From an uncultured Clostridia bacterium (GTDB lineage Bacteria; Bacillota; Clostridia; UMGS1810), in NCBI GenBank assembly GCA_934454585.1, contig CAKSFP010000005.1, positions 9,053 through 41,052 on the forward strand: 32,000 nucleotides of DNA, read 5' to 3'. The position numbers were made by a program, and so were the translations under genes. Below are positions 1,393 to 17,670 of this stretch, piece by piece. The notes beneath the pieces were generated by a model that saw only the letters and a list, made by a program, of their open reading frames with translations, did not search any database and was not told the DNA's origin. The first letter of the stretch is position 1. Every line of letters starts with the position of its first letter.

Positions 1393-1404
1393 AGGAGGAT
1401 GGCA

Positions 1405-3276
1405 ATGAAAAATTTTTGGGTTTTCAGATACTTAAAAAAATTTATACCGCTCATTGTCGTTTTGTGCGTTTTGGCGACATATGCCGTACATTTTAAGCTT
1501 GCAAGATCGAACACATATGTAGCGTCAGAGGTTATTCATTACAACGACGAGCAGGCGGAAAAAGGGCTCAATCCGACTGGGGGCAAGCTCGATGTAAATG
1601 AGATTAAATCTTCTGCGGTGATGTCAAAGGTTGTTGATAAGCTGGGGCTTACCGGGATTTATTCGGTGGACAGTCTTATATCGAGGATTGACATAACTCC
1701 CGTTGAGGACCAAGACAAGGTTGCGCAAAAGGAAGCAATGCGCGAGGCGGGCGAAGAATACACATACGAACCGAGTACATTTATTGTATCTTTTGCTGCC
1801 ACAAGCGGCGAAGGCTCGGGTTTTGCAAGCACAATAATCAATGAAACGCTGGATGTTTATTTTGAACAGTTCAGTGAGGAATATGTAAATGCGGTTCCGG
1901 CGAACAATACTGTTGCAAACTTAAACAAAAACGATTATGATTATATAGAGATGATGGAGATTATAGATTCAGATATCTCGGAAACCGTCAAAAGCCTGAA
2001 TCAGAGGATAGATAAAAACAATTATTACAGATCGACGGAGACGGGAGCATCGTTTGAGGAGCTTGCGGATGATTTTGATTATTTGAGACAGGTTAAGGTT
2101 TCCACGATTTTCTCGGAAATCTATAAATATCAGGTTACGAAAAACAAGTCGGTTCTTGTGTCCGACTATACGACCAGAATAGATAACAACGGTATTTCAA
2201 ATGCAAAAGATGAAAGCATTGTTGCAGATCTTGAAAATGTAATCGACGCTTATGTAAAAAAGATGAGAGATTCGGGAAATACCAATATAAGTCATGATTA
2301 TATACTTGACGATTTGCATGAGAAAAATGTTCAGGACTATGACGGAGACCAGACCGTAACATATGACGAGTTGATTTACAGCTGGAGGGATCATACCGAG
2401 AGCAGAGAACTGGCAATTATCGACTCGGCATATTGCCAGTATATATTAAACACATTTACAGCGTGCATAGGCAATTGCGGCGGCGAGTGCAAGTCATCCG
2501 GCCTTACATGCACGGAGCTTACAAATCCGGAATATGCTTTGGCAAGGGAAAAAATCGAACAGGAAATAGATGAGCTTTTAACCGAGCTTTCCGATCTTTA
2601 CGATAAGGCTATTAAAACAAACGAGGAGTACAACAAATATCTCGGTGCGAGTTATATTTCGGTGCTGTCAACGGCGTCTGTGAGGGAGAGCGTCAATGTA
2701 AAACTGTATACGGCAATTGCATTTTTCTTTTTCATGATTCTTTGTTGCGGCGCTGCAATTGTACTGGGGAGAGCTGCCGATATAATCACATATGTTTTCT
2801 ACACCGATCATCTTACGGGGCTGTATAACAGGGCGTATCTGGACAGATATCTCAAGTCCAAAGACAAGAAACTGCTTGATGACGGGGTCGTGTACTGCAT
2901 GGTCGATATAGTCAACCTGGTGCGCATAAACAACGATTATTCAAGAGATGTCGGCGATGAGATTATAAAAATGTTTACGCGGTATATTAAAGAGGTTTAC
3001 GGAAAATCCGATACCGAGTATGTTTACAACGGCAACGGCAGCTTTGTCATGCTGACAAAGGAGTCCGATTTTATCACGGTTGAGGACATGATGAAACTTT
3101 TCAGACTCAGGCTTGATGAGAGAGAAGAGTACAGAGAAGTTGTGATTGAATACAGGATAGGCATATCCGAGACATTTAAGGAAAACAAAACCGTAAGAAA
3201 ACTGCTTTCCGAGGCGATTGAGAATAAAAAGAGCTATATCTCGGACCTGAACAAAAATTCCGGACAAACCGAATAA
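1405..3276 (+). CDS. PCP/Wzz-like chain-length-determinant protein fused to a C-terminal degenerate GGDEF domain (GG[D/E]EF replaced by NGNGSF)
   Basis: ORF 1399-3276. ATG 1405 is preferred because AAAGGAGG (1391-1398) abuts ATG 1399. TM1 is IPLIVVLCVLATYAV, followed by ~400 aa that are extracytoplasmic, then TM2 (LYTAIAFFFFMILCCGAAIVLG), then a cytoplasmic DHLTGLYNRAYL...VDIVNLVRINNDYSRDVGDEI...YVYNGNGSFVML segment that is colinear with GGDEF domains. Confidence 0.7.
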   Translation: MKNFWVFRYLKKFIPLIVVLCVLATYAVHFKLARSNTYVASEVIHYNDEQAEKGLNPTGGKLDVNEIKSSAVMSKVVDKLGLTGIYSVDSLISRIDITPVEDQDKVAQKEAMREAGEEYTYEPSTFIVSFAATSGEGSGFASTIINETLDVYFEQFSEEYVNAVPANNTVANLNKNDYDYIEMMEIIDSDISETVKSLNQRIDKNNYYRSTETGASFEELADDFDYLRQVKVSTIFSEIYKYQVTKNKSVLVSDYTTRIDNNGISNAKDESIVADLENVIDAYVKKMRDSGNTNISHDYILDDLHEKNVQDYDGDQTVTYDELIYSWRDHTESRELAIIDSAYCQYILNTFTACIGNCGGECKSSGLTCTELTNPEYALAREKIEQEIDELLTELSDLYDKAIKTNEEYNKYLGASYISVLSTASVRESVNVKLYTAIAFFFFMILCCGAAIVLGRAADIITYVFYTDHLTGLYNRAYLDRYLKSKDKKLLDDGVVYCMVDIVNLVRINNDYSRDVGDEIIKMFTRYIKEVYGKSDTEYVYNGNGSFVMLTKESDFITVEDMMKLFRLRLDEREEYREVVIEYRIGISETFKENKTVRKLLSEAIENKKSYISDLNKNSGQTE

Positions 3277-3295: not shown

Positions 3296-4600
3296 GTGGA
3301 AAACAGAATCATCGAAATGGCAAAAGATTTTTATTTTCTTGTTGTCGCTGTCATGATGTATTATTTTCTGAATGAATACATTGATATAGGACTGTATGTC
3401 ACTTATCGCCACGCATTTGCCCTCGTACTTGCAGCCTCGGCTTTCGCTTTGTTTTTGTATAAGCCGAATATCGCTAGAGGACTCACCGCACTCAGCGGAG
3501 CGTTGGTTTACAGTGTTCCGCTGTTTGTCACCACTGTGGTGTCGCTCTTTATATGGCTTGTCGGAATGGCGGATGTGGCGGTTATATCAAGAGGGCTTTC
3601 AAGCTCTTTTGTATATATGAATATGCTGTCATTTGCTTTGGGGTCAGGGGCTCTTTTATATGTTTTCGGCGGCAGGGGAGTATGGTACAATCTGATAGCC
3701 ATTCTTACGGCAAATATGCTGATGATTGTCACGATTATAGCACAATACGGACTTGCAAGTTATTTCTCGGAATTTGTAACGCTTATAACAACCTTTGCGG
3801 ATGTGACCGGAGATATCATTGTCAAAGCGGAGATTCACGAGCTTGCATTTTGTCTTGGAGCATATTTAATCTATATGCTTTACAGACCGAAGAAAAGCAT
3901 GGGGTATTTTGTATTGCTTTTTCTGACACTTTTTTGTTTTCTGTCGGCGTTCAAGAGGATTGCTATGATTGCTGTAGCGGCTGCACTTGTATTCGGATAT
4001 TTGCTGAAATTTGTCATGCGCCGCAGCAAAAAAGCGGCGTGCGGTGCAGTTGTCGTTTTGAGCTTTGTCATCGTATTTTTGCTCATAGGATATGTTGCCC
4101 TCATAAAGTCAAATGTGTTTGAACTTTTGGAGAAGGCGGGAATAAACACGAGCGGACGCGTGGGGATGTATCGGGCAGTAGATAGATTTTACGAATTCAG
4201 TCCTGCTTTTTTGGGAAACGGTATAGGCTTTTTGACATATCAGCTGAACACCACCATGCACATCGGCGTAGCGTCCATTCACAACGACTTTCTGCAGCAT
4301 TTTATCGATTTGGGGTTTTGGGGCTATATCATATGGCTTCTGTCCATGATTTTGGCCCGGGTGTTATATTTCGGCAGACGCGGCAATGCGGACAATGCAA
4401 TTGTCACATTCATGCTGATACTTTACCTGGTGATTGTGTCATCGACTGACAACACGATGAACTATCCGCTTCTTACGGGAGTTCTTGCAATGCTGATGAT
4501 GGGAAACGGATTTGACAATGAGGTATGCCGCATAGAGAAAAGAATGTTTGGCTGTGTTTCAAAAGCAAACGAGGAAAAGAAAGGAGATTTGCTGCTGTGA
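3296..4600 (+). CDS. O-antigen ligase/polymerase family (Wzy-like) polytopic membrane protein
   Basis: 434 aa with about 10 or more hydrophobic helices. It has the Wzy_C-like motif ...GNGIGFLTYQ...IHNDFLQHFIDLGFWGYIIWLLS. GAGGGG lies 9 nt before GTG 3296. The stop overlaps the next gene's start (GTGA). Confidence 0.75.
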   Translation: MENRIIEMAKDFYFLVVAVMMYYFLNEYIDIGLYVTYRHAFALVLAASAFALFLYKPNIARGLTALSGALVYSVPLFVTTVVSLFIWLVGMADVAVISRGLSSSFVYMNMLSFALGSGALLYVFGGRGVWYNLIAILTANMLMIVTIIAQYGLASYFSEFVTLITTFADVTGDIIVKAEIHELAFCLGAYLIYMLYRPKKSMGYFVLLFLTLFCFLSAFKRIAMIAVAAALVFGYLLKFVMRRSKKAACGAVVVLSFVIVFLLIGYVALIKSNVFELLEKAGINTSGRVGMYRAVDRFYEFSPAFLGNGIGFLTYQLNTTMHIGVASIHNDFLQHFIDLGFWGYIIWLLSMILARVLYFGRRGNADNAIVTFMLILYLVIVSSTDNTMNYPLLTGVLAMLMMGNGFDNEVCRIEKRMFGCVSKANEEKKGDLLL

Positions 4601-5805
4601 GAATTTTGATGGTAAATAAGTTTTTGTACCCCCGCGGCGGAAGTGAAAGCTATATGCTCTATCTTGCGGACTATTTGAAAAAAATCGGTCATGAGGTCGA
4701 GTTTTTCGGTATGTATGATGAAAATAACACAGTAGGCAATTCCGCCGGTTTGTATACTCAAAATATGGACTTCCATTCAAACGGATTCGACAGATTTCTG
4801 TATCCGTTTAAGATTATATATTCTTTTGAGGCCAAGCGGAAGATTATGCGTGTCATAGACGATTTCAAACCCGATGTGGTTCATATGAACAATATAAACT
4901 TTCAACTTACTCCGTCTGTGATTTACGGCATAAAGAAGAAAGGCGTTCCAATCGTTCAGACTGTGCACGACTATCAGATGATTTGCCCTAATCATCTGCT
5001 TTACAACTTTGAAAAAAACACACCGTGCGAAAAATGTGTCGGCGGAAAATACAGCGACTGTATCGCAAACAGATGTATTCACGGTTCAAAAGTTAAGAGC
5101 ATTCTGGGAGTTGCCGAGGCAAAGTTCTACAATTTACTCAAAACATACAGATATGTCGATCTGTTTGTTTGCCCGAGCAGTTTTCTGGAAAACAAACTTC
5201 TCTCGGCAAGGAGTTATTTTAAGGGTAAGACAAAGACAATACACAATTACATAAACAAAGAAAAATTCAGAAAAACCGTCGGAGAGACGAAAGACTACAT
5301 TGCTTTTGTGGGGCGTCTTTCCGGAGAAAAGGGAATTGAAAATATCGCCGGGGCGGCAAAACTGCTCCCGGGATACACATTCATGGTTGCCGGCAGCGGA
5401 CCCGATGAGGCAGTGCTTCACGGTATCCCGAACATAAAGCTGACAGGATTCCTCACAGGGGACGAGCTGCGCGAATTTATCGGCAGAGCAAAGGTTCTCC
5501 TGTTGCCGTCCGTCTGTTATGAAAACTGTCCGCTCTCCATACTTGAGGCACACTGCATGGGAGTTCCCGTTGTAACGATGAACAGCGGTGGAATGGCAGA
5601 GCTTGTAGAGGACGGCGTCACGGGCACACTTGTAAACGACCCGACGCCCGAGGGAATTGCGGCAAAGTTAAAAGAAACCGTTGAAAATGATGATTACTAC
5701 AGACTCGTCAGAGAAAATTGCAAAAATGAAAAAGACAATATCCTGAGCGTTGAAACTTATGCCGATATATTGATTGATGAATACAAAAAGTTGGTTGCGA
5801 GGTGA
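4597..5805 (+). CDS. Glycosyltransferase family 4 (GT-B, group 1)
   Basis: N-terminus is VRILMVNKFLYPRGGSESYM. The C-terminal EX7E-type motif is YENCPLSILEAHCMGVPVVT...GGMAELVEDGVTG. GTG 4597 overlaps the upstream TGA, with AAAGGAGA 8 nt upstream. The longer ORF from 4525 is judged a false extension. Confidence 0.85.
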   Translation: MRILMVNKFLYPRGGSESYMLYLADYLKKIGHEVEFFGMYDENNTVGNSAGLYTQNMDFHSNGFDRFLYPFKIIYSFEAKRKIMRVIDDFKPDVVHMNNINFQLTPSVIYGIKKKGVPIVQTVHDYQMICPNHLLYNFEKNTPCEKCVGGKYSDCIANRCIHGSKVKSILGVAEAKFYNLLKTYRYVDLFVCPSSFLENKLLSARSYFKGKTKTIHNYINKEKFRKTVGETKDYIAFVGRLSGEKGIENIAGAAKLLPGYTFMVAGSGPDEAVLHGIPNIKLTGFLTGDELREFIGRAKVLLLPSVCYENCPLSILEAHCMGVPVVTMNSGGMAELVEDGVTGTLVNDPTPEGIAAKLKETVENDDYYRLVRENCKNEKDNILSVETYADILIDEYKKLVAR

Positions 5806-6869
5806 AAAGAGTGAAACGACCCAAAGTCAGCATCATCATTCCCGTGTATAATGCCGAGAAATTTCTCGACAGATGCATAAATTCCATAACAAATCAAACG
5901 CTGCGCGAAATCGAAATAATTCTTGTGGATGATTCATCGACAGATTCATCCCTTGAGATATGTCGGGCGGCGGCAGAGAAAGACAGCCGGATAAGGGTTA
6001 TTCACAAGGCGAACGGGGGCGCCGGAATGGCGCGAAACGAGGGGCTTAAAATTGCGGCCGGAGAATACATCGGTTTTGTGGATTCCGATGATTTTATCGC
6101 CGAAGATATGTATGAAACACTCTATAATAAGGCGAGAAAATACGATTCGGATCTTGTGATGAGCGGAGTTTTGTTTGCTGACGGAATCATGTTTTGCAAA
6201 GAGGGAGAATGTATTTGCAGAACCTGTTTTGAAAAAGACACTCATTTTGACGATCCGGACAGTCTGAAAGAACTTAAAACGGGCATCGTGGGAGCCGCAC
6301 CGGGGGATCCCGAGGACAGCAAATACGGAATGAGTATTTGGAAAAACCTTTTTAAGAATGAAATAATAAAGAAAAACAATATCGTCTTTCAATCCGAGAG
6401 GGAGATGCTGTCGGAGGACGCGTTGTTTATGATAGACTACATTTCATGCATAGACAGAGCGACGGGCATCCCGGGGGCGTTTTATAATTATTGCAGAAAC
6501 GGTGATTCTGTTTCAAAATCATACAAAAATGACAGATTTGAAAAAAGCCTTGTTTTCGTGAGTGAGGTCGAAAAAAGATTTCAAAAAGACATGACACCCA
6601 AGGAATACCGGATATATATATATAGATTTTGGCAGGCGATGTGCCGGGTGATATGTGTGCAGGAGATAATGCACGCAGAGGAGACAGGGGTTAAATATGC
6701 TGAATTGAAGAAAAGGCTGAAGGCGGTATGTACGCATGACTTCACGGTGAGCTCGCTTGAGTCATATCCGATAGGTACGCTGCCGCTCAAACAGGCGGTG
6801 TTTGCCTTTGGCATGAAATACAGACTGTATTTACTGTTGATAGTGCTTGTAAAACTAAGAAGCAAATAG
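5802..6869 (+). CDS. Glycosyltransferase family 2
   Basis: VSIIIPVYNAEKFLDRCINSITNQT...ILVDDSSTDSS...GFVDSDDF (GT-A fold with a DxD motif). The start overlaps the upstream stop (GTGA). Confidence 0.85.
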   Translation: MKRVKRPKVSIIIPVYNAEKFLDRCINSITNQTLREIEIILVDDSSTDSSLEICRAAAEKDSRIRVIHKANGGAGMARNEGLKIAAGEYIGFVDSDDFIAEDMYETLYNKARKYDSDLVMSGVLFADGIMFCKEGECICRTCFEKDTHFDDPDSLKELKTGIVGAAPGDPEDSKYGMSIWKNLFKNEIIKKNNIVFQSEREMLSEDALFMIDYISCIDRATGIPGAFYNYCRNGDSVSKSYKNDRFEKSLVFVSEVEKRFQKDMTPKEYRIYIYRFWQAMCRVICVQEIMHAEETGVKYAELKKRLKAVCTHDFTVSSLESYPIGTLPLKQAVFAFGMKYRLYLLLIVLVKLRSK

Positions 6870-6879
6870 GTGATGAGAT

Positions 6880-7902
6880 ATGTTTTTTTCCGTAATAGTA
6901 CCTGTATACAATGTCGAAAGATATTTGACCGACTGTATAAACAGCGTTTTGAATCAGAATTTTTCCGACTTTGAGCTTATATTGGTCGACGACGGATCGC
7001 CGGACGGCTGTCCGAAAATCTGTGATGAATACAGGGATAAAGATGCACGAATAAAAGTGATTCACAAACCAAACGGCGGTCTTGCGAGTGCCAGGAGAGC
7101 CGGAATTAAGATTGCCAAAGGAGATTATGTTTTCAATCTTGACTCCGACGATCTGATTGAAAAAGACACGCTGGAGTGTGCACATAGGATAATAATGGAC
7201 ACAAACTGCGAAATGGTATCGTTTTCTTACAGATGGGTCAAAGACGGCAGCACAGTAAACATAACGGACGATTGTCTCGATGAGGGACTCTATGACGGGG
7301 AAAAAATCAAAAAATATATTTACCCGAAACTGCTCATGGACAAAAATATGAATCATGTTTCATATTATCTGTCGGGAAAGGCAATAAAAAGAGAATTGCT
7401 GATGCCCTGCCAGCTTGCCGTGAACGAAAAAATATCTTTGGGCGAGGATTTTTGCTGTGTTCTCCCGTGTTATCTTAAAGCCGAAAGTGTGTATATAAGC
7501 AAAAAAGCGGCTTATCTGTATACCGTGAGGGAGGATTCTCTGTCAAAGGAGTTCAACTCAAGACAGATTTTTCTCGTGGAAGATGTTATATTTGAGATAG
7601 TTAAAAACGATGTCGATAAACTGACTGATTTTGGCGAACAGATTTGCCGTTACTCGTGCTTTATGTGTTTTGCAATATTGGCAGCTGCGGCAGAGGGCAA
7701 TCATTTTAAGTATATGAATGAGATTGCGGATAATATGGAACATTCGATTCACAAGGCACTAATTGACCGTGCGAAGTTTGAAAATATCACTCCAAAGAGT
7801 GCAATAGCTGTATTTCTGATAAAGAAAAGATTTTATTGCGCGGCGTTTTGTTTTCTTAATTTGTGCAAGAATATAAAAAAGATATTTAATAAAACGAGGT
7901 GA
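6880..7902 (+). CDS. Glycosyltransferase family 2
   Basis: FSVIVPVYNVERYLTDCINSVLNQ...ILVDDGSPDG...NLDSDDL. Confidence 0.85.
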   Translation: MFFSVIVPVYNVERYLTDCINSVLNQNFSDFELILVDDGSPDGCPKICDEYRDKDARIKVIHKPNGGLASARRAGIKIAKGDYVFNLDSDDLIEKDTLECAHRIIMDTNCEMVSFSYRWVKDGSTVNITDDCLDEGLYDGEKIKKYIYPKLLMDKNMNHVSYYLSGKAIKRELLMPCQLAVNEKISLGEDFCCVLPCYLKAESVYISKKAAYLYTVREDSLSKEFNSRQIFLVEDVIFEIVKNDVDKLTDFGEQICRYSCFMCFAILAAAAEGNHFKYMNEIADNMEHSIHKALIDRAKFENITPKSAIAVFLIKKRFYCAAFCFLNLCKNIKKIFNKTR

Positions 7903-7911
7903 GAAATCCAC

Positions 7912-8988
7912 ATGGCAAAAATATCGGTAATCATGAGTGTATATAACGGCGAAAAATATCTGAATGAAGCGATAGACAGTGTGAGAAATCAGACATTTGC
8001 GGATTGGGAACTGATTGTAATAAATGACTGTTCGACGGATTCCACGGGGGATATTCTTGCCGGATTTGCGGAGGCTGACGACAGGATAAAGGTTTACACA
8101 AATAAGGTCAATTTAAGACTTCCCGCTTCTCTTAACAAGGCAATTTCTCTTTGCAGCGGCAAGTATATCGCCAGGATGGATGCGGATGATATCTGTCTTT
8201 CGGAGAGATTCGAAAAACAATATGAATATATGGAGGAGCATCCGGATGTTGCGTTGTCGTCATGCAGATTTATGACTCTCAAGAACGGGGTATATTCATC
8301 GGGCGGTGCAGGCGGACGGTGCGACAACGAGGCGTTGCGCGCAATGCTGCTTGTGGCTAACCCGATACTTCACCCGGGGGTCATTGCGAGGACCGAGGTA
8401 CTCAGGGAAATGAATTACGATACAAGCCTTACATGCACAGAGGATTTGGAATTGTGGACACGGATGGCGACTGAGGGCAAAAAAATACAGCTTCTCCCCG
8501 AGTGCCTTCTGATATACAGACTTCACGACAAACAAATAACAGGCACTACATTGGAAAGACAACATGTCGAGGTGCTTAAAATTCAGCAAAAATACTATGC
8601 GGCGCTCCTTGAAAAAATGGGTGACGAGTTGCAGCGGTTTTATATCGGCGGAGTGTATTTCAGGGAGCAGCCCGATGTGCATAAGTTAATCAGGTATGCA
8701 AAATGGCTGAAAAGTAAGAGCGTCGGGAGTTTTGATGCTGACGACATAAACTATGCACTGCTTGAAGTTATAGCGGAGTACAAAAGATGCGGTGTGCCAA
8801 AAACAGATATCATAAGAGCGCTGTTCATGTTCAATCCCTTGTTTTTGACAAAGGAATTTGTTCGGAGAAAAAAAGCGGCAAAAAAAGATATCGAAAAATG
8901 TATGGAAGCCGCGTTAAAATCAGGGCTAAAACAAACCGGAGGAACGGCGGAGTTCCCCGTATTTCAAAAGGATAACGGGAGGGTGTAA
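7912..8988 (+). CDS. Glycosyltransferase family 2
   Basis: ISVIMSVYNGEKYLNEAIDSVRNQT...IVINDCSTDST...ARMDADDI. Confidence 0.85.
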   Translation: MAKISVIMSVYNGEKYLNEAIDSVRNQTFADWELIVINDCSTDSTGDILAGFAEADDRIKVYTNKVNLRLPASLNKAISLCSGKYIARMDADDICLSERFEKQYEYMEEHPDVALSSCRFMTLKNGVYSSGGAGGRCDNEALRAMLLVANPILHPGVIARTEVLREMNYDTSLTCTEDLELWTRMATEGKKIQLLPECLLIYRLHDKQITGTTLERQHVEVLKIQQKYYAALLEKMGDELQRFYIGGVYFREQPDVHKLIRYAKWLKSKSVGSFDADDINYALLEVIAEYKRCGVPKTDIIRALFMFNPLFLTKEFVRRKKAAKKDIEKCMEAALKSGLKQTGGTAEFPVFQKDNGRV

Positions 8989-10362
8989 ATGACGGTTTTT
9001 GAATACCCATATGTGATAATAACCATTCTTTCGGCGGTTTTTCTTGCGATGATCTTCTTCGGCGTGCATTTTACCTTGAAATCGGTAAAAACAGCGGACG
9101 GAACAGTCGAGAGAGATTTTTGCGGTATGGGGAAAATAGAAAATGACTTTGAAAAATCAGAAAATTTCGGAAAAATACAATCGCTGATGTATATTTCAAT
9201 GTCGCTTGACAGCGTGAAAAGACTGTATTCCGAGTCTCAGGCGGCAAGATTGTATGAACAAATAAAAAAAATTCTTTTTGAGAAGTTGTGTCTTGATATC
9301 GGCGGTGAAATTTCTGTTTGCGGCAATGGAAATTTTGTTTCGTTAAACGGCTTGGGATCGGGTGAGACTGAGCGTTGTATCGAGCTGTGCTCTGAAAAAA
9401 TCAATAAAATTTGCGTGGAACACAATGCTGTGAATGTTGTTCGAATGCATTTTGGATATATATGCACATCTTCAAACGAAATTTCATTTCAAATCGCTTT
9501 TGAAAGGGCAAAAAAAGCATTGAGTATAGCGGAAGATAAGGACATTTTATACTATCGCTGGGACAATCTGAGCGATAGAGAATTTGAAAAGAAACTGAAG
9601 ATAGAAAACAATATACAAAATGAAATTGAAAACAACAGATTTTTTCTTGAATATCAGCCTATTCTGGATGCAAAAACAAACAAGGTCATCGGCGCCGAGG
9701 TTTTGTCAAGACTCAATTCTCCTACGGAAGGAATCTTGGCGCCGCAGCTTTTTCTTTCGGCAGTAAACAATGTGGGACTGAACCAGAAGTTTGACTATTA
9801 TATTTTCGAGAAGAACTGCAAGTGGATTTCAAACGCAAGAGAGAAACGAGTCAAATATGTGTATACAATCAATTTTTCGCGCCATACGCTGTGTGACACG
9901 AATATGGTCGAAAATATAACAAATATCATAAAAAAATATGACATAGATTATTCGTGCATTGCCATTGAAGTGCTGGAAGACAAAACGCTCAATGAGACAG
10001 AAAGAGCGCAGATAGCGAGAAATCTGAATAGCTTGGCAGATAAAGGAATTCTAATTCTTCTTGACGATTTCGGCAAGGGTCATACCAGGTTTGAAGATTT
10101 GAACGATTTTGATGTAAGCATCGTAAAAATTGATAAGTCAATAACTCAAAATGCTACGAACCAAAAGGGGTTTTTGATTCTTAAAACGATTATTAAGATT
10201 GCACATGACCTCGGCTCAGCAACGCTTTGCGAAGGTGTGGAAACGGAGGAACAAAAAAAAGCCGCACTTGCTGCCGGCTGCGATATGTTTCAGGGTTATT
10301 ATTTTTATCATCCCATTCCGGTTACGAAGTTTGAAAAGTTGTTTGAGGAAAATTGTAATTGA
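8989..10362 (+). CDS. Membrane-anchored degenerate GGDEF (GNGNF) + EAL-domain protein; probable c-di-GMP phosphodiesterase
   Basis: N-terminal TM is VIITILSAVFLAMIFFGV. The middle domain has a GGDEF-like layout but the signature reads CGNGNF. The EAL domain keeps its hallmark residues: YQPI, EVLSR (9697-9711), INFS, IEVLE, LDDFG, KIDKS, CEGVETEE, FQGYYF. The ATG directly follows the upstream TAA (TAAATG). Confidence 0.85.
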   Translation: MTVFEYPYVIITILSAVFLAMIFFGVHFTLKSVKTADGTVERDFCGMGKIENDFEKSENFGKIQSLMYISMSLDSVKRLYSESQAARLYEQIKKILFEKLCLDIGGEISVCGNGNFVSLNGLGSGETERCIELCSEKINKICVEHNAVNVVRMHFGYICTSSNEISFQIAFERAKKALSIAEDKDILYYRWDNLSDREFEKKLKIENNIQNEIENNRFFLEYQPILDAKTNKVIGAEVLSRLNSPTEGILAPQLFLSAVNNVGLNQKFDYYIFEKNCKWISNAREKRVKYVYTINFSRHTLCDTNMVENITNIIKKYDIDYSCIAIEVLEDKTLNETERAQIARNLNSLADKGILILLDDFGKGHTRFEDLNDFDVSIVKIDKSITQNATNQKGFLILKTIIKIAHDLGSATLCEGVETEEQKKAALAAGCDMFQGYYFYHPIPVTKFEKLFEENCN

Positions 10363-10378
10363 TTTGCGGCGGAATTTG

Positions 10379-10387
10379 TGGTAAAAT
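10379..10387 (+). promoter_or_regulatory. Possible extended -10 element (TGgTAAAAT) upstream of the peptidase gene
   Basis: Sequence match only. No convincing -35 element. Confidence 0.25.
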
Positions 10388-10462
10388 GGGGATGTGACGG
10401 GTCGGGCGAAACGGCGCACCGACCATAGTGCACGAAAAACTGTTTGTAAAGGAACATCAACC

Positions 10463-11884
10463 ATGAAAAAGAAAATCATCTCATTCCTGGCAGCGGCGTC
10501 ACTTGCCGTTACCGCCGTGCCGGTGTTTGCCGAGCAGAACATTTTCGCAGACGCCGCGACAGCAACGCTTGCCAAAACAAATGCGCAAAATGCCGCTGTA
10601 CCGACGGTAATTACGGTGTTTAACCGCGCATATGCCGATGTTTATGCTCTTGCACCACGACTCGGCGCGGCAGTCCGCTGGACGGACGATGGCGGCGGCA
10701 GATGCATAGTGACATACGGCGGCAGACAGATTGCTTTTACTTCTGTTTCGCAGTATGATGAACTCGGCAGTGCGGAAAAATTCTTTGCAAAAGACGGCGA
10801 TATATTCGTATCCGTGCGTGAGCTGTGCGATTTTCTCTCGATGCCGATAACTTATGACAATGGGGTGATAACCGTCTCAGGTTCGGGCGGAGCGCCTCTG
10901 ATTACGCTCGATGCGCGCGGCACCGAGGGCGATGACATAGTCTACACCCATTACCCCAAGTGGGCGCAGTATGTTGTCAATCCGTACAAGGAATATAGCT
11001 ATGATGACATGATAAACGATGCGCGCTCTCTTGCGGATATGTATCCCGACCTGATAAAACTTTCGTCAATAGGTAAGTCGGCAGAGGGCAGAGAGCTGCT
11101 GCTGATGAAAATCGGCAGGGGTGACAGGAAGGTTTTTGTATGCGGCACTCACCATGCCAGGGAGTACATAGCCACGACTTACCTTATGTACGCCATGGAC
11201 AGATATGCCTATGCTTACCGTACCGGCAGCCTGTTTGACGGATACAGTCCGCGTGAAATTTTCGGTGAGATTACTTTTTGCGTCGTGCCCATGGTAAATC
11301 CGGACGGGGTCAACCTGGTGCAGAACGGATTCAGCGCAACCCCGGCGGCAGATTCCATAGCACAGATGGGCATATATGAGGGAGAGAAATACGGCTATGC
11401 CGCATGGAAAGCGAATATCCACGGTGTGGATGTAAACTGGAATTACGACAAAGACTGGTCTGCCGAGCGCAACAAACATCTGCGCGGCTCTACGGGATTC
11501 AACGGAGACTACCCCAACAGCGAGCCGGAGACGGCGGCGGTTGCGGCATATGTGGATTCGGTGCCGTTCGACGCATATTTTTCGTTCCATACTCAGGGAC
11601 AGGTTTACTATTGGGCTGACAGTAAGTCGCACCCGATGTATCTGCAAAATGTGGTTGCCGCAGCAACGGGCTTCACGGGGCAATGGGACAGCGGCACGGG
11701 TATAGGCGGTTCGTTCTTCGATTATGTTTACCGTAAGTACGACAAGCCGACCATAACCCTTGAGCTGTGCCCGTATGTTGGAAACTATCCTTACCCCGAC
11801 GGTGATTTTGACACCGTGTGGCACCCGGCGAGGAATGTTCTGCTTGCGCTGGGAAATGAAATTATTTATCTGAACAGAAAATAA
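10463..11884 (+). CDS. Secreted M14 zinc carboxypeptidase family protein (gamma-D-glutamyl-diamino-acid peptidase-like) with an N-terminal copper-amine-oxidase-like stalk domain
   Basis: Signal peptide is MKKKIISFLAAASLAVTAVPVFA. M14 motifs present: GTHHAREYIA (HxxE), VPMVNPDGV, HGVDVNWNY, SEPET, FSFHTQG. The 10394 start would add a non-signal, basic extension. Confidence 0.8.
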   Translation: MKKKIISFLAAASLAVTAVPVFAEQNIFADAATATLAKTNAQNAAVPTVITVFNRAYADVYALAPRLGAAVRWTDDGGGRCIVTYGGRQIAFTSVSQYDELGSAEKFFAKDGDIFVSVRELCDFLSMPITYDNGVITVSGSGGAPLITLDARGTEGDDIVYTHYPKWAQYVVNPYKEYSYDDMINDARSLADMYPDLIKLSSIGKSAEGRELLLMKIGRGDRKVFVCGTHHAREYIATTYLMYAMDRYAYAYRTGSLFDGYSPREIFGEITFCVVPMVNPDGVNLVQNGFSATPAADSIAQMGIYEGEKYGYAAWKANIHGVDVNWNYDKDWSAERNKHLRGSTGFNGDYPNSEPETAAVAAYVDSVPFDAYFSFHTQGQVYYWADSKSHPMYLQNVVAAATGFTGQWDSGTGIGGSFFDYVYRKYDKPTITLELCPYVGNYPYPDGDFDTVWHPARNVLLALGNEIIYLNRK

Positions 11885-11886
11885 AG

Positions 11887-11932
11887 AATCAGAGGGTTTA
11901 GAAAGACGATTGTTTTTCTAAACCCTCTGATT
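11887..11932. terminator. Bidirectional rho-independent terminator between convergent genes
   Basis: A perfect 18-bp stem (AATCAGAGGGTTTAGAAA / TTTCTAAACCCTCTGATT) with a 10-nt loop. T-rich tails follow on both strands. Confidence 0.8.
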
Positions 11933-13198
11933 TTATCTTGTAATTATTATCTTCTCAGCCGGACTGACAGGCCTGCAAGTCTTAAGGCTATCCCAGATGA
12001 ACACCTTGAGATAGGTTGCGCTGCCGAGACTTGACGCCGGAATCTGGATGTTAATTGCATTGACTGTCTTGCTTGTAGGCGTTGACGCGATGTGATAGTT
12101 GACAATCTCATTACTGCTGTTGTATAAAGCCGCGTGGATGCATTCTCCGCTGATAGGCTCGTCCATAGCCACGGTGACAGACAGATAACCGTTCGCCAGG
12201 ATGGCGGTCGAGTGGGTGTTGTTTGTCAGCTCCGTGCTGCCGCCCGAACTTCCGCCGGTTGCGGTGTATGGTATTCCGTATTCCTTTGCCACAGCCTCGG
12301 CATACGATCCGTATGTGGTGGTTATTTTGAGCGCCGAGCACCCCTCAAATGCGCCGTAGCCTATGTTCGACACAGTTGCCGGCAGATCCATAGCCGTAAG
12401 TGACAAGCAGTCGTAGAACACATAGTTACCCAGGGTGTTGAGCAGTTTCGGTGTGTTTATCGTCGTGAGCGCTTTGCAGCCGTAGAACATATACTGCGGC
12501 AGGCTTGTCAGCTTGTCCGGCAGATTGACTGTTGTGAGCAACATATTGTATGCAAAAGCATACTCGCCTATGTAGTAAACACTTTCCGGTATGGTGATTG
12601 TTGCAGGTGAGACAAACGACGAACTCTGGCGGAATGCATAGTCGGGTATGTACTTTACATTGCTGCCGAAGTTAATTGCCGTCACCGGGCTCTGATAGAA
12701 CACAGGACTTGTAAGCGTACCCATGGTTTCGCATTTTGTCGCGTTGAAATTGACCGTTGACAGGCTGCTGCACTTGGCAAACGCACCGCCGCCTATAGAG
12801 GTGACATTCTCGGGGATTGTGATGCTTGTCAGAGCCGTGCACCCGATAAATGCACCTGTGCCGATTGTCAGTTTTTTTGAATCGGAATTAATTGAAACCG
12901 ATTTGAGTTTTGTCAGGCTGTTGAAAGCCGCATTGCCTATGTGGCTGACAGTACCCGATATAACAACGCTTGTTATTGATGATGCATATGCATTGTACCA
13001 CGGAGTATCAGTCGCTTTGGCATAGTCCGCCATTTGGCAGTCGTTTGCGGATGTGGCGGATATCATGAGGGTGGTTCCGTTGAGCAACCATGAGCAAGAG
13101 CCTGTCGAACCCGATGTCGCCGCCGAAACCGTGATGCATGAGCCTGCCGCAAGGCAGACAATGAGCACGATGGTGAGAAGTAATTTTGTCTTTTTCAT
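11933..13198 (-). CDS. Secreted BspA-like leucine-rich-repeat (LRR_5 type) surface protein
   Basis: Signal peptide is MKKTKLLLTIVLIVCLAAGSCITVSA. It has repeated units of the type IGxxAFxxCxxLxSITIPxxVTSIG, then a Gly/Ser linker (GGSSGGS) and a C-terminal beta-rich domain. ATG 13198 is preferred over 13228. Confidence 0.8.
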   Translation of the reverse strand: MKKTKLLLTIVLIVCLAAGSCITVSAATSGSTGSCSWLLNGTTLMISATSANDCQMADYAKATDTPWYNAYASSITSVVISGTVSHIGNAAFNSLTKLKSVSINSDSKKLTIGTGAFIGCTALTSITIPENVTSIGGGAFAKCSSLSTVNFNATKCETMGTLTSPVFYQSPVTAINFGSNVKYIPDYAFRQSSSFVSPATITIPESVYYIGEYAFAYNMLLTTVNLPDKLTSLPQYMFYGCKALTTINTPKLLNTLGNYVFYDCLSLTAMDLPATVSNIGYGAFEGCSALKITTTYGSYAEAVAKEYGIPYTATGGSSGGSTELTNNTHSTAILANGYLSVTVAMDEPISGECIHAALYNSSNEIVNYHIASTPTSKTVNAINIQIPASSLGSATYLKVFIWDSLKTCRPVSPAEKIIITR

Positions 13199-13335: not shown

Positions 13336-14106
13336 TCAGCAGGCTTTCATTTCCAGCCTTATCTTGTCCGCAATCATGGCGATAAACTCGCTGTTTGTCG
13401 GCTTGCCCTTGCTCGAGAGTATCGTATAGCCGAAAAGGTCGTTTAGCACATCTGGATTGCCGCGGTCCCATGCCACCTCTATTGCATGGCGAATGGCGCG
13501 CTCCACTCTGGACGGTGTGGTGTTGTAGTGCTTGGCAACCGTGGGGTATAGGATTTTTGTGATGGAGTTTATTGCGTCCATATCCTCTATGACCATTGTT
13601 ATGGCGTCTCTTATGTACTGATAACCTTTTATGTGAGCCGGCACTCCGAGCTGCTGAATATGCATTGTGATGTTGGTCTCAAGATCTCTTGATTTTGAGT
13701 CGAATACATTTCCGCTGCTCTGCTTTTCGGCGGTGATGTCGGCTATACGGTCGCGCAGCACGGAAAATTCAAACGGCTTTATGAGATAATAGCTTGCGCC
13801 GTGATTCATTGCCGAGTTGATTATATTTTCGTGAGCGGACGGAGAGAATACTATTGTTTTGGGCTTTTTGCTCAGTATATTATTGTTGTTTATTTTTGCA
13901 AGAACCGCCAGGCCGTCGAGCAGCGGCAGGATTATGTTGACAAGCAGCACATCGGGTCTGGTCTCGAGCACTGTCTCATATGCTGTCTTGCCGTCGTGAG
14001 CCGTTCCGACCACTTCAAAACTTTCGATTTCGGACAGATAAGATTTCAAATTGCTGCAAAATTCTTTGTTATCATCCGCTATAACTATTCTTGTTCTTCT
14101 TTTCAT
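13336..14106 (-). CDS. spo0A: Sporulation master response regulator Spo0A (phosphoacceptor position is Asn)
   Basis: The receiver domain is [10 protein letters not shown]...[18 protein letters not shown]...LIKPF. The Spo0A-specific C-terminal domain is [59 protein letters not shown]. Confidence 0.93.
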
Positions 14107-14718: not shown

Positions 14719-14997
14719 TCACGGATTGCACCGTTTGCATGGCGAATAACCTTTTGCAATTGCGTCGTCGCGCGTATCGTTGAGATACAACATGTTTTCG
14801 TCGTTCATTTGATAAACGGATTCATATGACGGGAGGTGAAATTTTTTTGTTTTTTGATTTGCGATGTAGGTGAAGATTTTTTCTTTTGCTTCAACAGTGT
14901 TTGAATTTATTGTGTTTACGGCATTGTCTGCCGTATGAATATTAAGAGCAAAAATCAACACAAAGCAAAAAACAGGCAACAACAAAAATTTTTTCAT
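14719..14997 (-). CDS. Small secreted protein with a C-terminal Ada-type Zn-ribbon-like motif (KFH...PCKRCNP), first Cys replaced by Tyr
   Basis: Signal peptide is MKKFLLLPVFCFVLIFALNIHTA. The C-terminus is KFHLPSYESVYQMNDENMLYLNDTRDDAIAKGYSPCKRCNP. ATG 14997 is preferred (AAAGGA 8 nt upstream) over 15006. Confidence 0.6.
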   Translation of the reverse strand: MKKFLLLPVFCFVLIFALNIHTADNAVNTINSNTVEAKEKIFTYIANQKTKKFHLPSYESVYQMNDENMLYLNDTRDDAIAKGYSPCKRCNP

Positions 14998-15037
14998 TTC
15001 TTTCATCCTTTACATATAATATTTAGTATCATATATC

Positions 15038-15189: not shown

Positions 15190-15531
15190 ATGAAAAGTGA
15201 ATTGGATTTTCGGGAGGTTGGTTCGCGCATCCAGGGTTTCAGACTGAAAAACGGATTGACACAGGATGAACTCGGTGAGAAAATAGGTACGGACCAAAAA
15301 TATATATCAAGAATTGAAGGCGGATATCATAACATCAGTCTTGATACCGTGGTTGCCATAGCGCGTGCGCTTCATATATCGGTCGACAGCCTTGTTGCGG
15401 ATTACGGAAATGGTGCCGACGAGAGCAATTTGCAGGACATTTTGAACGCTGTGCGCGGGATGTCATCGGGACAGCTTGATATGCTTAGGGATGAGATAGA
15501 GTTGATTAAAAGATATGATGTGAATGGGTGA
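15190..15531 (+). CDS. XRE-family helix-turn-helix regulator (SinR-like size and layout)
   Basis: HTH_3 pattern: VGSRIQGFRLKNGLTQDELGEKIGTDQKYISRIEGGYHNISLDTVVAIARALHISVDSLV. A ~45-aa helical tail follows. GAGGA SD upstream. Confidence 0.85.
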   Translation: MKSELDFREVGSRIQGFRLKNGLTQDELGEKIGTDQKYISRIEGGYHNISLDTVVAIARALHISVDSLVADYGNGADESNLQDILNAVRGMSSGQLDMLRDEIELIKRYDVNG

Positions 15532-15838
15532 TTTGGTGGACATAAACAGCAGACTTGAAGAACTTTTGAAGAAACAAGGATGGACTAAATACAGACTTTC
15601 AAAGGAAAGCAAACTGCCAGAATCCACGCTTTCAAACATATTTCACCGCGGAACGGTGCCGACGATTGCGACTCTTGAGATTATATGCAACACAATGAAC
15701 ATAACTCTTGCGGAGTTTTTCTCCGACGATGACAAAGTGGTTATGACGCCGGAATTAAGGGAATTTTATGAAGAATGGATTCATTTGTCGCCGGAAAAGA
15801 GGGCAAATGTTTTGCAGACCATGAGGTTTATGAGATGA
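15524..15838 (+). CDS. Second XRE-family helix-turn-helix regulator, overlapping the first by 8 nt
   Basis: INSRLEELLKKQGWTKYRLSKESKLPESTLSNIFHRGTVPTIATLEIICNTMNITLAEFF plus a helical tail. ATG 15524 overlaps the upstream stop. Confidence 0.8.
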   Translation: MGDLVDINSRLEELLKKQGWTKYRLSKESKLPESTLSNIFHRGTVPTIATLEIICNTMNITLAEFFSDDDKVVMTPELREFYEEWIHLSPEKRANVLQTMRFMR

Positions 15839-16038: not shown

Positions 16039-17670
16039 ATGATACATATAAAACTTCTCGACCGTTCGGGCAATGTGCTCTTTGACAAATCGGGAGAAAA
16101 CGCAGTTTCCGCAGTATATTGCGGCACATATGGCGACGGCGACAGAATAAGAATAGACACTGACGAATCGGAGTGGCTGGCAATAAACCTTGACCCGACC
16201 GTGGGTGAGGGGTTGGTGTTCGTTCCGGGCAAAATGTTTACATATGACATTCCTCTTGCCACTGTGGGAGTGTGCTTTGACAAAGACGCTTTTTCGGGAG
16301 AGGAACACCCGATATCCGCGCGCACCCCGTCGGACGACGAACTGTATGCGCAAAGGGTCATCTCGCTCAATCCGTACGATATGCACGGCGTGTCGGGCAT
16401 TTATCCGCACGCATACGCAAACTATGTCACCCGTGACGAGGCAAACTTCTTTGAGCGCAACGCCATAAACGGCGTAATCCACACCGATGGTCACTGGGCA
16501 TATCCTTACAGCAACTGGGCGGGCGGCGCACGCGACGACCTGGAGTTTTGGGTGGATTTCGGCGATGAAGTCGAGGTTGACAAACTTGTGTTCCATTTGA
16601 GGGCGGATTTTCCGCATGATTCATATTGGAACAGTATAGATGCCGTGTTTGACGACGGCACAAGATACACAATGCCGCTTAAAAAGAGCGGAGACGGACA
16701 GGAGCTCAACCTTCCCGAATCCGTCATCACAAAAAAAGTTCATCTGACGAACTTTAAGCAGCCGACAACGCCGCTTTCATGGGCAGGACTCAGCCAAATT
16801 GAAGTATGCGGCAAATATATAAAAAAGGAGCAAAAAACAATGGAAGTAAGAAACGCATCAAACTCAAAAGATGTTAAGCACTATACCACAGAGAGGCTCA
16901 GAGAAGAATTCCTCATTACGGGTCTTTTCTCCAAGGACAACATCAAAATGGTATACAGCCACATCGACAGAATCATAACTTGCGGCATAATGCCGGTTGA
17001 CCAGGAACTCAAACTCGAGGCGGGCAAGGAGCTCGCGGCGGACTATTTCCTGCAGCGCAGAGAAATGGGTGTGATTAATATCGGCGGCAAGGGCATTATC
17101 ACCGTGGACGGTACCGAGTACATAATGGAGCCGAGAGACGGTATATTCATCGGTCAGGGAAACAAGGACATCACCTTCAAGGCCGTTGACCGCAACGAAC
17201 CCCCGAAATTCTACATGAGCAGCTGCCCGGCGCACAAATCTTACCCAACGGTTAAGATAGACATCTCCAAGGCTAAAAAAGTGCCCTGCGGCTCCGTTGA
17301 GGATTGCAACAAGAGAGTAATCAATCAGTACATACACCCGGAGGTTATGCAGTCCTGTCAGCTCTCCATGGGTCTGACGCAGCTTGAGCCGGGTTCAAAC
17401 TGGAACACCATGCCATGCCATACTCATGACAGAAGAATGGAAGTTTATCTCTATCTTGACATGGGCGAAAATGATGTTGTGTTCCACATGATGGGCGAGC
17501 CGACCGAGACACGCCACATCATCATGCACAATGAGGAGGCTGTTATCAGCCCGAGCTGGTCCATCCACTCCGGCGTGGGCACAAAGGCATATTCGTTCAT
17601 CTGGGCAATGTGCGGAGAAAACCAGGATTTTGACGATATGGATCACATTGAGACAAAGAACCTGAGATAA
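16039..17670 (+). CDS. kduI: Fusion ORF: N-terminal discoidin/CBM-like domain (aa 1-267) in frame with 5-dehydro-4-deoxy-D-glucuronate isomerase KduI (aa 268-543)
   Basis: The C-terminal 276 aa are colinear with KduI (MVYSHIDRII.CGIMP, GVINIGG.G.ITVDG, WNTMPCHTHDRRMEVY, ISPSWSIHSGVGT, FIWAMCGENQDFDDMDH). The N-terminal part ends ...LSWAGLSQIEVCGKY. No stop codon separates the two parts. Both ATG 16039 and the internal ATG 16840 have AAGGAG sites. Confidence 0.8.
   Translation: MIHIKLLDRSGNVLFDKSGENAVSAVYCGTYGDGDRIRIDTDESEWLAINLDPTVGEGLVFVPGKMFTYDIPLATVGVCFDKDAFSGEEHPISARTPSDDELYAQRVISLNPYDMHGVSGIYPHAYANYVTRDEANFFERNAINGVIHTDGHWAYPYSNWAGGARDDLEFWVDFGDEVEVDKLVFHLRADFPHDSYWNSIDAVFDDGTRYTMPLKKSGDGQELNLPESVITKKVHLTNFKQPTTPLSWAGLSQIEVCGKYIKKEQKTMEVRNASNSKDVKHYTTERLREEFLITGLFSKDNIKMVYSHIDRIITCGIMPVDQELKLEAGKELAADYFLQRREMGVINIGGKGIITVDGTEYIMEPRDGIFIGQGNKDITFKAVDRNEPPKFYMSSCPAHKSYPTVKIDISKAKKVPCGSVEDCNKRVINQYIHPEVMQSCQLSMGLTQLEPGSNWNTMPCHTHDRRMEVYLYLDMGENDVVFHMMGEPTETRHIIMHNEEAVISPSWSIHSGVGTKAYSFIWAMCGENQDFDDMDHIETKNLR
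16825..16842 (+). promoter_or_regulatory. Internal Shine-Dalgarno (AAGGAG) + ATG at the canonical KduI N-terminus
   Basis: AAGGAG at 16825-16830, a 9-nt spacer, then ATG 16840 (MEVRNAS...). Confidence 0.45.

Follow-up and report, generated by a model that had tools for sequence, protein, structure and literature searches.

Wzx/Wzy-dependent pathways of polysaccharide assembly are thought to be gated by cycles of a bacterial tyrosine kinase (BY-kinase) and a phosphatase, and several synthase-dependent systems (BcsA, Alg44, PelD, PgaCD, PssE and YdaK) are known to be controlled post-translationally by cyclic di-GMP (c-di-GMP). In the polysaccharide co-polymerase (PCP) Wzc of E. coli K30 (PCP-2a; PDB 7NHR, 9R62), two transmembrane segments surround a large helical domain outside the cell, and a P-loop BY-kinase follows the second of them; the capsule loci of Firmicutes use a PCP-2b protein, a BY-kinase and a phosphatase (CpsC, CpsD and CpsB). 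A 2021 review on the control of extracellular polysaccharides (EPS) by c-di-GMP leaves Wzx, Wzy and Wzc unmentioned (PMC8461298). Here we describe a gene from an uncultured Clostridia bacterium, located on a stretch of 32,000 nucleotides (contig CAKSFP010000005.1, positions 9,053–41,052; the whole stretch is referred to as the window). This gene, ORF2 (positions 1405–3276 of the window, + strand), encodes a 623-residue protein in which, according to Pfam, hydropathy, AlphaFold2 (AF2) and Foldseek analyses, a PCP-like module is fused to a degenerate GGDEF domain.

The fusion of a PCP-like module to a pseudo-GGDEF domain is real, widespread and uncharacterized. An initial annotation of this DNA, made by a model from the letters alone, knew of no characterized PCP::GGDEF fusion, and a full-text search of the literature likewise found no description of a PCP::GGDEF or Wzz-GGDEF fusion. 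The architecture is supported by the analyses presented below; from it we infer a mechanism in which the tail acts as a regulatory adaptor or as a guanine-nucleotide sensor. A co-polymerase with a domain of the c-di-GMP family in the kinase position would join the c-di-GMP and Wzx/Wzy fields, and would offer an answer to how Wzy loci that lack a kinase are switched.

Predicted architecture of ORF2

The open frame of ORF2 spans positions 1399–3276 on the + strand, and its second ATG, at 1405, which had been given as the start, is matched by a GGAGG ribosome-binding site. Hydropathy analysis revealed exactly two transmembrane segments, at about residues 14–34 (TM1; positions 1444–1506) and 432–458 (TM2; positions 2698–2778), which coincide with AF2 helices at residues 14–34 and 432–466. 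As the N-terminus preceding TM1 is rich in lysine and arginine, it is predicted to lie in the cytoplasm. In this orientation, a loop of about 400 residues, containing the PCP-like domain (residues 35–431; positions 1507–2697, delimited by AF2, Foldseek and the Wzz matches of relatives), would be exposed outside the cell, and a tail of about 165 residues would reside in the cytoplasm, as the initial annotation had proposed. By this prediction, ORF2 shows the layout expected of a PCP, two transmembrane helices around a large outside domain with both termini in the cytoplasm.

Between two long helices, the outside domain bears a CX3CX3CX6C loop (C354, C358, C362 and C369; residues 354–369; positions 2464–2514), identified by orthologue conservation. 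Each of its cysteines is conserved in 64–67 of 67 orthologues, and three of the four are invariant. The loop could act as a disulfide staple or hold a metal.

A family of gut and rumen Clostridia

Relatives were gathered with a HMMER scan of 1.84 billion representatives, using residues 1–465 of ORF2 as the query. At 50% clustering, the family comprises 667 representatives at E<1e-3, of which 120 reach E<1e-30. Among 116 full-length representatives at the same clustering level, 74 are tailed, 35 are tail-less, three carry an EAL domain instead and four have another arrangement; in a subsample of 64 relatives, Pfam called GGDEF in 37, Wzz in 21 and EAL in three. In the three PCP-like::EAL fusions (P0240, P0256 and P0270; locus L071, positions 4960–7179), the EAL domain directly follows TM2 in place of the pseudo-GGDEF domain. 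One further relative, P0146 (locus L073, positions 10001–12445), has an extra extension of about 220 residues beyond its GGDEF domain (residues 590–814), which is of low complexity and rich in proline, lysine and glutamate.

Close relatives of the locus were sought with a single protein as the query and one genome per GTDB species. We found 70 such loci, with identities of 43–79%, all in uncultured Clostridia from gut or rumen (Oscillospiraceae, Acutalibacteraceae, Monoglobaceae, Congzhengia and Anaerovoracaceae). With its 667 representatives and the 70 species-level genomes of the close clade, the family is large and specific to gut and rumen Clostridia, and could therefore influence how abundant commensals produce capsule or EPS.

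The cytoplasmic tail is a degenerate GGDEF domain

The tail of ORF2 (residues 466–606; positions 2800–3222) is beyond doubt a GGDEF domain. Pfam GGDEF (PF00990) matched the whole protein with an E-value of 1e-14 and 55 bits (cut-off 23.8) and the tail alone with an E-value of 6.8e-16, the match extending over residues 466–604 and over profile positions 2–147 of 161. TIGR00254 matched with an E-value of 1.2e-13, and phmmer searches against PDB sequences retrieved DgcR (3.4e-8) and PleD (1.8e-6). The AF2 model of full-length ORF2 reached a predicted local distance difference test (pLDDT) value of 92.3, and its top 50 Foldseek matches all contained a GGDEF domain, including both cyclases and the degenerate domains of LapD and FimX. 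DgcR, PleD, SadC and WspR are among the sequence and fold matches of the tail in the PDB; for fold matches to isolated GGDEF domains, the template modeling score (TM-score) is about 0.7 relative to the target. The colinearity with diguanylate cyclase domains noted in the initial annotation is thus confirmed by sequence and by fold.

In the AF2 model, TM2 runs as one helix to residue 466, and the DxLT motif follows from residue 468, where DHLTGLYNRAYL begins. This single continuous helix argues that the tail is mechanically coupled to TM2.

The catalytic GG(D/E)EF hairpin is replaced by NGNGSF (residues 542–547), exactly at positions 3028–3045 where it had been read before, and neither of the acidic residues of an active cyclase is present. 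The two guanine-contacting residues, which had looked retained in the initial annotation, are indeed in place: a HMMER alignment equated N509 of ORF2 with PleD N335 and D518 with PleD D344. At the position of PleD D327, ORF2 and most close orthologues have an aspartate (D501 in ORF2), and most of the family has a hydrophobic residue; PleD K332 corresponds to a valine in ORF2, without conservation across the family. When ORF2 is aligned to DgcR with HMMER, GKSD (residues 533–536) falls on the RxxD I-site. Most orthologues have GKSK here, and the position is variable and gapped across the wider family. The previous report of a missing RxxD therefore holds, but the tetrapeptide given for it, KSDT, was one residue out of register.

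This pattern of loss and retention recurs in the family. Across 75 tails, the former catalytic hairpin follows the consensus YNGxGQF (N in 70, Y in 63 and F in 61); asparagine occupies the PleD N335 position in about 70% of them, and aspartate the D344 position in about 80%. The GRxxGD, DxxTGLPNR and IRxL blocks are conserved as well, giving a family signature of DxxTGLPNR ... NLxxxNxxxGRxxGD ... YNGxGQF, and the equivalents of PleD D327, K332 and E370/E371 are not conserved. Mean identity among 66 orthologues from species-level genomes amounts to 74% in the tail versus 72% in the ectodomain. Judged from its sequence, the tail is a pseudo-enzyme of long standing that has been kept by selection.

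We considered an active cyclase and rejected this possibility because the catalytic residues are missing, both the acidic residues of GG(D/E)EF in ORF2 and the metal/phosphate ligands (PleD D327 and K332) in the family. Named public records of ORF2-type proteins say "diguanylate cyclase", a label that is contradicted by the ORF2 sequence, which excludes cyclase activity, and that is corrected here. It is also highly improbable that the YNGxGQF hairpin serves ORF2 in an unorthodox enzyme activity, as a nucleotidyl cyclase or otherwise. The fold is intact and confidently modeled, and the aspartate at the PleD D327 position of ORF2 and most close orthologues would suit such an activity; however, GG(D/E)EF has lost its two acidic residues, most of the family carries a hydrophobic residue in place of D327, and K332 has not been kept. 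To our knowledge, no cyclase works without the acidic residues of GG(D/E)EF and the equivalents of D327 and K332.

Degenerate GGDEF domains are also found in PelD of P. aeruginosa, PssE of Listeria and YdaK of B. subtilis, which resemble ORF2 in that the domain sits on a membrane protein, is encoded in an EPS operon and belongs to a c-di-GMP-linked locus. These receptors rely on an intact RxxD I-site to bind c-di-GMP. Unlike ORF2, they belong to synthase-dependent systems and have no PCP module, and the intact I-site that characterizes receptors of the PelD, PssE, YdaK and PopA type is absent from ORF2. With RxxD missing in ORF2 and variable in its family, the comparison with PelD and PssE drawn in the initial annotation does not hold at the sequence level. 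Membrane-bound degenerate-GGDEF receptors of c-di-GMP in EPS machines have been treated elsewhere (PMC4125290, PMC8461298).

The N-terminal module resembles polysaccharide co-polymerases

The label "co-polymerase", which the initial annotation had attached to ORF2, could not be verified from the ORF2 sequence alone. Pfam and NCBIfam searches with ORF2 gave no match to Wzz (PF02706) or GNVR (PF13807) at E≤1, and a profile built from tail-less proteins and N-terminal modules retrieved only coiled-coil noise from PDB sequences (PI3K p85, keratin). The label gained support from relatives and from structure prediction. Pfam Wzz matched at the N-terminus of the 21 relatives mentioned above with a best E-value of 2.3e-6, most of these matches falling just below the gathering score; seven individual matches scored 17–24 bits versus a cut-off of 25.5 bits.

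Since GGDEF domains took up the Foldseek matches of the full-length model, residues 1–463 were modeled separately with AF2 (pLDDT 93.0; predicted TM-score 0.82). The modeled outside domain consists of a small α/β base and long antiparallel helices, and is flanked by the two transmembrane helices. In a Foldseek search against the PDB, the top 25 matches to this model were all co-polymerases (Wzc, WzzE, WzzB and KpsE), with E-values from 1.3e-5 to 0.1 and a probability of 1.00 for the top 11; E-values were 1.3e-5 to 2.4e-4 for Wzc, 1.6e-3 for WzzE and 5e-3 for WzzB. These models support the placement of the N-terminal module of ORF2 in the PCP fold class.

Wzc is the best structural match to this module and the system closest to ORF2 in architecture. 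Both proteins have two transmembrane segments around a large helical outside domain and a regulatory domain of a nucleotide-binding type in the cytoplasm behind TM2, and both belong to a Wzy-dependent locus. As the initial annotation had claimed, the pseudo-GGDEF domain takes the kinase position, directly following TM2 as the BY-kinase does in Wzc. ORF2 differs from Wzc in that a dead GGDEF palm domain replaces the P-loop BY-kinase. It contains neither a Walker A motif nor a tyrosine cluster, there being a single tyrosine among its last 40 residues, and thus lacks the marks of a PCP-2a kinase of the Wzc type. As the host is a monoderm, no Wza partner exists for ORF2. A BY-kinase/phosphatase pair immediately upstream, together with a tail that binds no nucleotide, had been named in advance as speaking against the proposal. 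A BY-kinase was looked for among the proteins of the window and in the related loci, including all 70 close ones; neither a BY-kinase nor a Walker A motif or tyrosine cluster was detected.

ORF2 lies in a Wzy-type polysaccharide locus

In the window, ORF2 is part of an operon on the + strand. It is preceded by ORF1 (positions 37–1392), which encodes a tail-less PCP-like paralogue of 451 residues, as indicated by BLASTP, hydropathy and a family alignment. ORF1 is 22% identical to the N-terminal module of ORF2 (BLASTP E=5e-8) and is composed of an extra N-terminal hydrophobic segment, a transmembrane segment, an outside domain and a second transmembrane segment, without a cytoplasmic domain. Upstream of ORF1, the window begins with the 3' end (INKF*; positions 2–16) of a gene for a membrane-anchored Metallophos phosphoesterase, identical to the C-terminus of the Metallophos protein of the related locus L001; the window does not reach the remainder of this gene or the operon's 5' half.

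ORF2 is followed by a gene for a Wzy-type polymerase or O-antigen-ligase-like membrane protein (positions 3296–4600; Pfam Wzy_C E=8.5e-10), which is syntenic in related loci, and by a GT4 glycosyltransferase gene (positions 4525–5805; Glycos_transf_1 E=2.6e-27), the true start of which is likely the ATG at 4609, right behind the Wzy stop codon. Three GT2 glycosyltransferase genes (positions 5802–6869, 6880–7902 and 7912–8988; Glycos_transf_2 E about 1e-36 each) and, as the final gene of the operon, one for a membrane-anchored EAL phosphodiesterase (positions 8989–10362; Pfam EAL E=3.9e-60) complete the cassette. The genomic context expected of a PCP, Wzy and Wzx in a glycan locus, is seen here, with Wzy_C encoded by the next gene and flippase-like or Polysacc_synt proteins in related loci. 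Gene content thus supports the assignment of the ORF2 locus as a Wzy-type polysaccharide locus.

The cassette ORF1-ORF2-Wzy-GT4-GT2x3-EAL is retained in about 60 of the 70 close loci, down to 43% identity. A tail-less PCP-like gene directly precedes the tailed gene in 67 of the 70 close loci and in all six divergent loci that we inspected (about 25–35% identity), and in 67 close loci the Metallophos gene, for a membrane-anchored esterase, lies directly upstream of the ORF1 homologue. Further upstream genes in the close loci encode GT4 (64 loci), Bac_transf (64), a GT32-like transferase (58) and a flippase-like protein with multiple transmembrane segments (57). The core of the six divergent loci consists of the tail-less PCP-like gene, the tailed gene and Wzy_C; Polysacc_synt was called in two of them (L071 and L077), and Metallophos is adjacent in four, fused in one and not visible in the flank of the truncated sixth.

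The set of Metallophos esterase, tail-less PCP-like protein and tailed PCP-like protein recurs in the window, in L001 (positions 7617–9988) and in L071, L073, L074, L075 and L077. The fused case, P0231, has the order PCP-like::GGDEF::TM::Metallophos, with a transmembrane segment at residues 643–666. This segment between the GGDEF and Metallophos domains, together with the N-in anchor of the free-standing protein, indicates that the Metallophos esterase faces outward. A cytoplasmic, CpsB-like phosphatase partner was considered for this protein and rejected, as the esterase is placed outside the cell by the same two features. The esterase might serve in polymer release or trimming.

The locus can be compared with the CpsC/CpsD/CpsB systems, which likewise are Gram-positive and Wzy-dependent and likewise comprise a trio of a PCP, a cytoplasmic domain of a nucleotide type and a metallo-phosphoesterase. 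In the ORF2 locus, however, the PCP is duplicated in a tail-less and a tailed form, and the pseudo-GGDEF domain replaces the kinase. The outside domain of ORF2 comprises about 400 residues, compared to about 120 in CpsC-type proteins. Unlike CpsB, the putatively outward-facing Metallophos esterase could not serve a phosphorylation cycle in the cytoplasm.

The locus is linked to c-di-GMP

The EAL protein encoded at the end of the operon contains one N-terminal transmembrane segment, a domain of about 170 residues and the EAL domain. Compared with Lmo0131 and MorA, the EAL domain has kept every catalytic motif (ExLxR, N, ExxE, DDFG, K, EGVE and Q), and the phosphodiesterase is apparently active. 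The N-terminal region of about 170 residues (positions 8989–9630) contains GNGNFVSL, and an hhalign comparison with the ORF2 tail yielded an E-value of 5e-4 and a probability of 30% over 92 colinear columns; Pfam GGDEF matched the corresponding domain in two of seven orthologues, with E-values of 0.004 and 0.034. BLASTP between the ORF2 tail and this region gave no significant match, aligning just GNGSFVML with GNGNFVSL, and Pfam was negative there. These observations are suggestive only of a second, more degenerate GGDEF domain, which would give the protein a TM-GGDEF-EAL arrangement.

Just upstream of the homologous operon, a c-di-GMP-I riboswitch (RF01051) was found in five related loci with Rfam scores of 59–65 bits (gathering score 35): L060 (positions 572–657), L066 (4103–4189), L067 (1147–1234), L068 (583–665) and L069 (4117–4204). 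A covariance model derived from these five riboswitches added L040 (677–771) and L056 (728–821), with 67–69 bits at the equivalent position; all seven are on the + strand. No riboswitch was detected by Rfam in the L010 leader or in the window, which does not include the operon's 5' end. Its absence from the window and from most close loci is uninformative because the operon start lies beyond the available sequence (10-kb flank). In L066, the aptamer shares its 3' end with a hairpin that is followed by a U-tract; a consensus scan for terminators found nothing.

Upstream of the cassette, six loci (e.g., L001, positions 24–2312; also L055, L066 and L069) encode a flanking dCache-GGDEF protein whose GGDEF motif is intact. 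This protein is a candidate for the cognate cyclase.

The EAL gene of the operon, the relatives with an EAL fusion and the riboswitch in related loci strengthen the link between ORF2 and c-di-GMP. Two other explanations were considered. In the first, the tail would be a structural pseudo-enzyme that neither binds a nucleotide nor transmits a signal; it would drive or stabilize oligomerization of the PCP ring, or serve to tether the complex to the priming transferase, Wzx or Wzy; c-di-GMP would then control the locus through the riboswitch alone, independently of the tail. GGDEF domains of diguanylate cyclases are natural dimerizers, the kinase ring of Wzc aids oligomerization of the PCP ring, and a tail that has lost the I-site and the metal/phosphate ligands would fit such a role, as would a riboswitch that already supplies c-di-GMP control and an EAL gene that is not universal in divergent loci. 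We nevertheless consider this explanation rather unlikely, given that the guanine-contacting Asn and Asp and the family-specific YNGxGQF are strongly conserved, which would be needless in a mere scaffold, and that EAL can substitute for GGDEF on the PCP-like module. This replacement argues that the cytoplasmic module was chosen for c-di-GMP chemistry.

In the second, ORF2 would signal from the outside in, its PCP-like ectodomain sensing the nascent polymer or the state of the cell wall and its tail modulating the neighboring EAL enzyme or cyclase. ORF2 would then tune c-di-GMP, and hence expression of the operon through the riboswitch, rather than polymerization. A continuous helix from TM2 to the GGDEF domain is typical of sensor cyclases, the name "diguanylate cyclase" in the records points the same way, and riboswitch and EAL gene would complete a feedback loop within the locus. 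On the other hand, the tail cannot itself make c-di-GMP, and ORF2 is always accompanied by a tail-less paralogue and Wzy, as expected of a working co-polymerase. This scenario appears improbable to us.

A proposed role for the pseudo-GGDEF tail

Building on what the analyses show, namely the architecture, the predicted topology, the pattern of degeneracy, a well-conserved tail, the synteny and the presence of c-di-GMP elements in the locus, we lean toward the view that ORF2 is a divergent PCP-class member of a Wzx/Wzy locus, with the dead GGDEF domain as a regulatory handle that is tied to the local c-di-GMP network. The tail would be the cytoplasmic handle of the co-polymerase, rigidly joined to TM2 via the continuous helix, and its state, probably set by the local c-di-GMP network, would be passed to the outside PCP ring cooperating with Wzy, or signals would travel in the reverse direction. 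Two ways of setting the state of the tail appear likeliest. The tail may dock the EAL phosphodiesterase of the operon and/or a cognate cyclase through contacts of the GGDEF-GGDEF type, in the manner of a "trigger-PDE" or of local signaling. Alternatively, what remains of the active-site pocket, with the kept Asn and Asp base contacts and the YNGxGQF hairpin, may bind a guanine nucleotide. ORF2 probably would work with the tail-less ORF1, possibly in a mixed ring, and with the outward-facing Metallophos esterase. Binding of a ligand or partner, formation of a hetero-oligomer and an effect on polymerization or chain length are steps that we infer.

Known systems provide precedents for parts of this proposal. 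Conceptually closest is Alg44, a bitopic "co-polymerase" of the inner membrane with an outside domain that aids polymerization or export and a c-di-GMP-linked domain in the cytoplasm (PMC8461298). Alg44 differs from ORF2 by its PilZ domain, its fold resembling membrane fusion proteins and its synthase-dependent pathway, and its binding of c-di-GMP is proven, unlike the hypothetical binding by ORF2. In LapD, in the GcbC-LapD pair and in DgcC/PdeK at BcsB, degenerate c-di-GMP domains on a transmembrane helix signal across the membrane, as suggested here for ORF2. The GGDEF domains of GcbC-LapD and DgcC/PdeK-BcsB constitute docking surfaces for partner cyclases or phosphodiesterases, as we propose for the ORF2 tail, and the LapD GGDEF domain (6pwk) is among the fold matches of ORF2. 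Unlike ORF2, LapD senses c-di-GMP by its EAL domain, and its output is the sequestration of a protease, not polysaccharide assembly.

Several observations weigh against a c-di-GMP-tied co-polymerase. With regard to the tail, degenerate GGDEF domains established as receptors use an I-site, and this mode does not apply where the site is missing, so that c-di-GMP binding in the manner of PelD, PssE and YdaK is unlikely. The initial annotation had also suggested GTP sensing. While the guanine contacts are conserved, the metal and phosphate ligands (equivalents of D327, K332 and E370/E371) are not, and because these ligands are missing, it is doubtful that the tail binds GTP as PdeA does. With regard to the N-terminal module, the PCP assignment is based on the fold and on weak profile matches, the window protein itself being sub-threshold in Pfam. 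The fold matches to PCPs, Wzc among them, have TM-scores of only 0.23–0.29 at about 9% identity. The Pro/Gly-rich motif that PCPs carry next to or within TM2 is PX2PX4SPKX11GXMXG; none of 117 family sequences matched a Pro-rich motif by TM2, and ORF2 has no proline within residues 400–460, another difference from Wzc. Based on the low TM-scores, the low identity and the absent Pro-rich motif, the family is to be filed as divergent PCP-like, not as canonical Wzz or Wzc. With regard to the locus, the riboswitch evidence comes from related loci only, the 5' end of the operon being outside the window. The EAL gene is absent from L073, L074 and L075, the GGDEF-tailed divergent loci with enough flank, which speaks against an EAL partner as a mechanism that holds throughout the family. 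Finally, every relative is metagenome-derived, and a cultured host was not found among them.

A bolder version of the c-di-GMP-tied co-polymerase can be formulated, which we put forward tentatively and regard as possible rather than probable. In many gut Clostridia, an undescribed module may govern Wzy-dependent polysaccharide assembly; it would consist of a mixed ring of tail-less and pseudo-GGDEF-tailed co-polymerases and of an outward-facing Metallophos esterase. The cycle of tyrosine phosphorylation known from Wzc and CpsCD would give way in this module to a guanine-nucleotide or c-di-GMP state, read directly via the YNGxGQF pocket or via an EAL or GGDEF enzyme docked to it. If true, this would be the first case of a Wzx/Wzy pathway controlled post-translationally by c-di-GMP.

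Genes downstream of the operon

The genes downstream of the operon, encoding an M14 peptidase, a BspA-LRR protein, Spo0A and others, are not syntenic in related loci. The Spo0A region and its neighbors occupy positions 13336–14106 (− strand), 14719–15006 (−), 15190–15838 (+) and 16039–17670 (+), and the presence of the Spo0A gene indicates that the host is an endospore-forming Firmicute. The KduI/IolB-family protein of this region has an unassigned N-terminal domain of about 290 residues. Beside Spo0A lies a stretch of low GC content (37%), which encodes a small secreted protein with CKRCNP at its end and, in overlapping genes, two proteins of the XRE-type helix-turn-helix (HTH) class.

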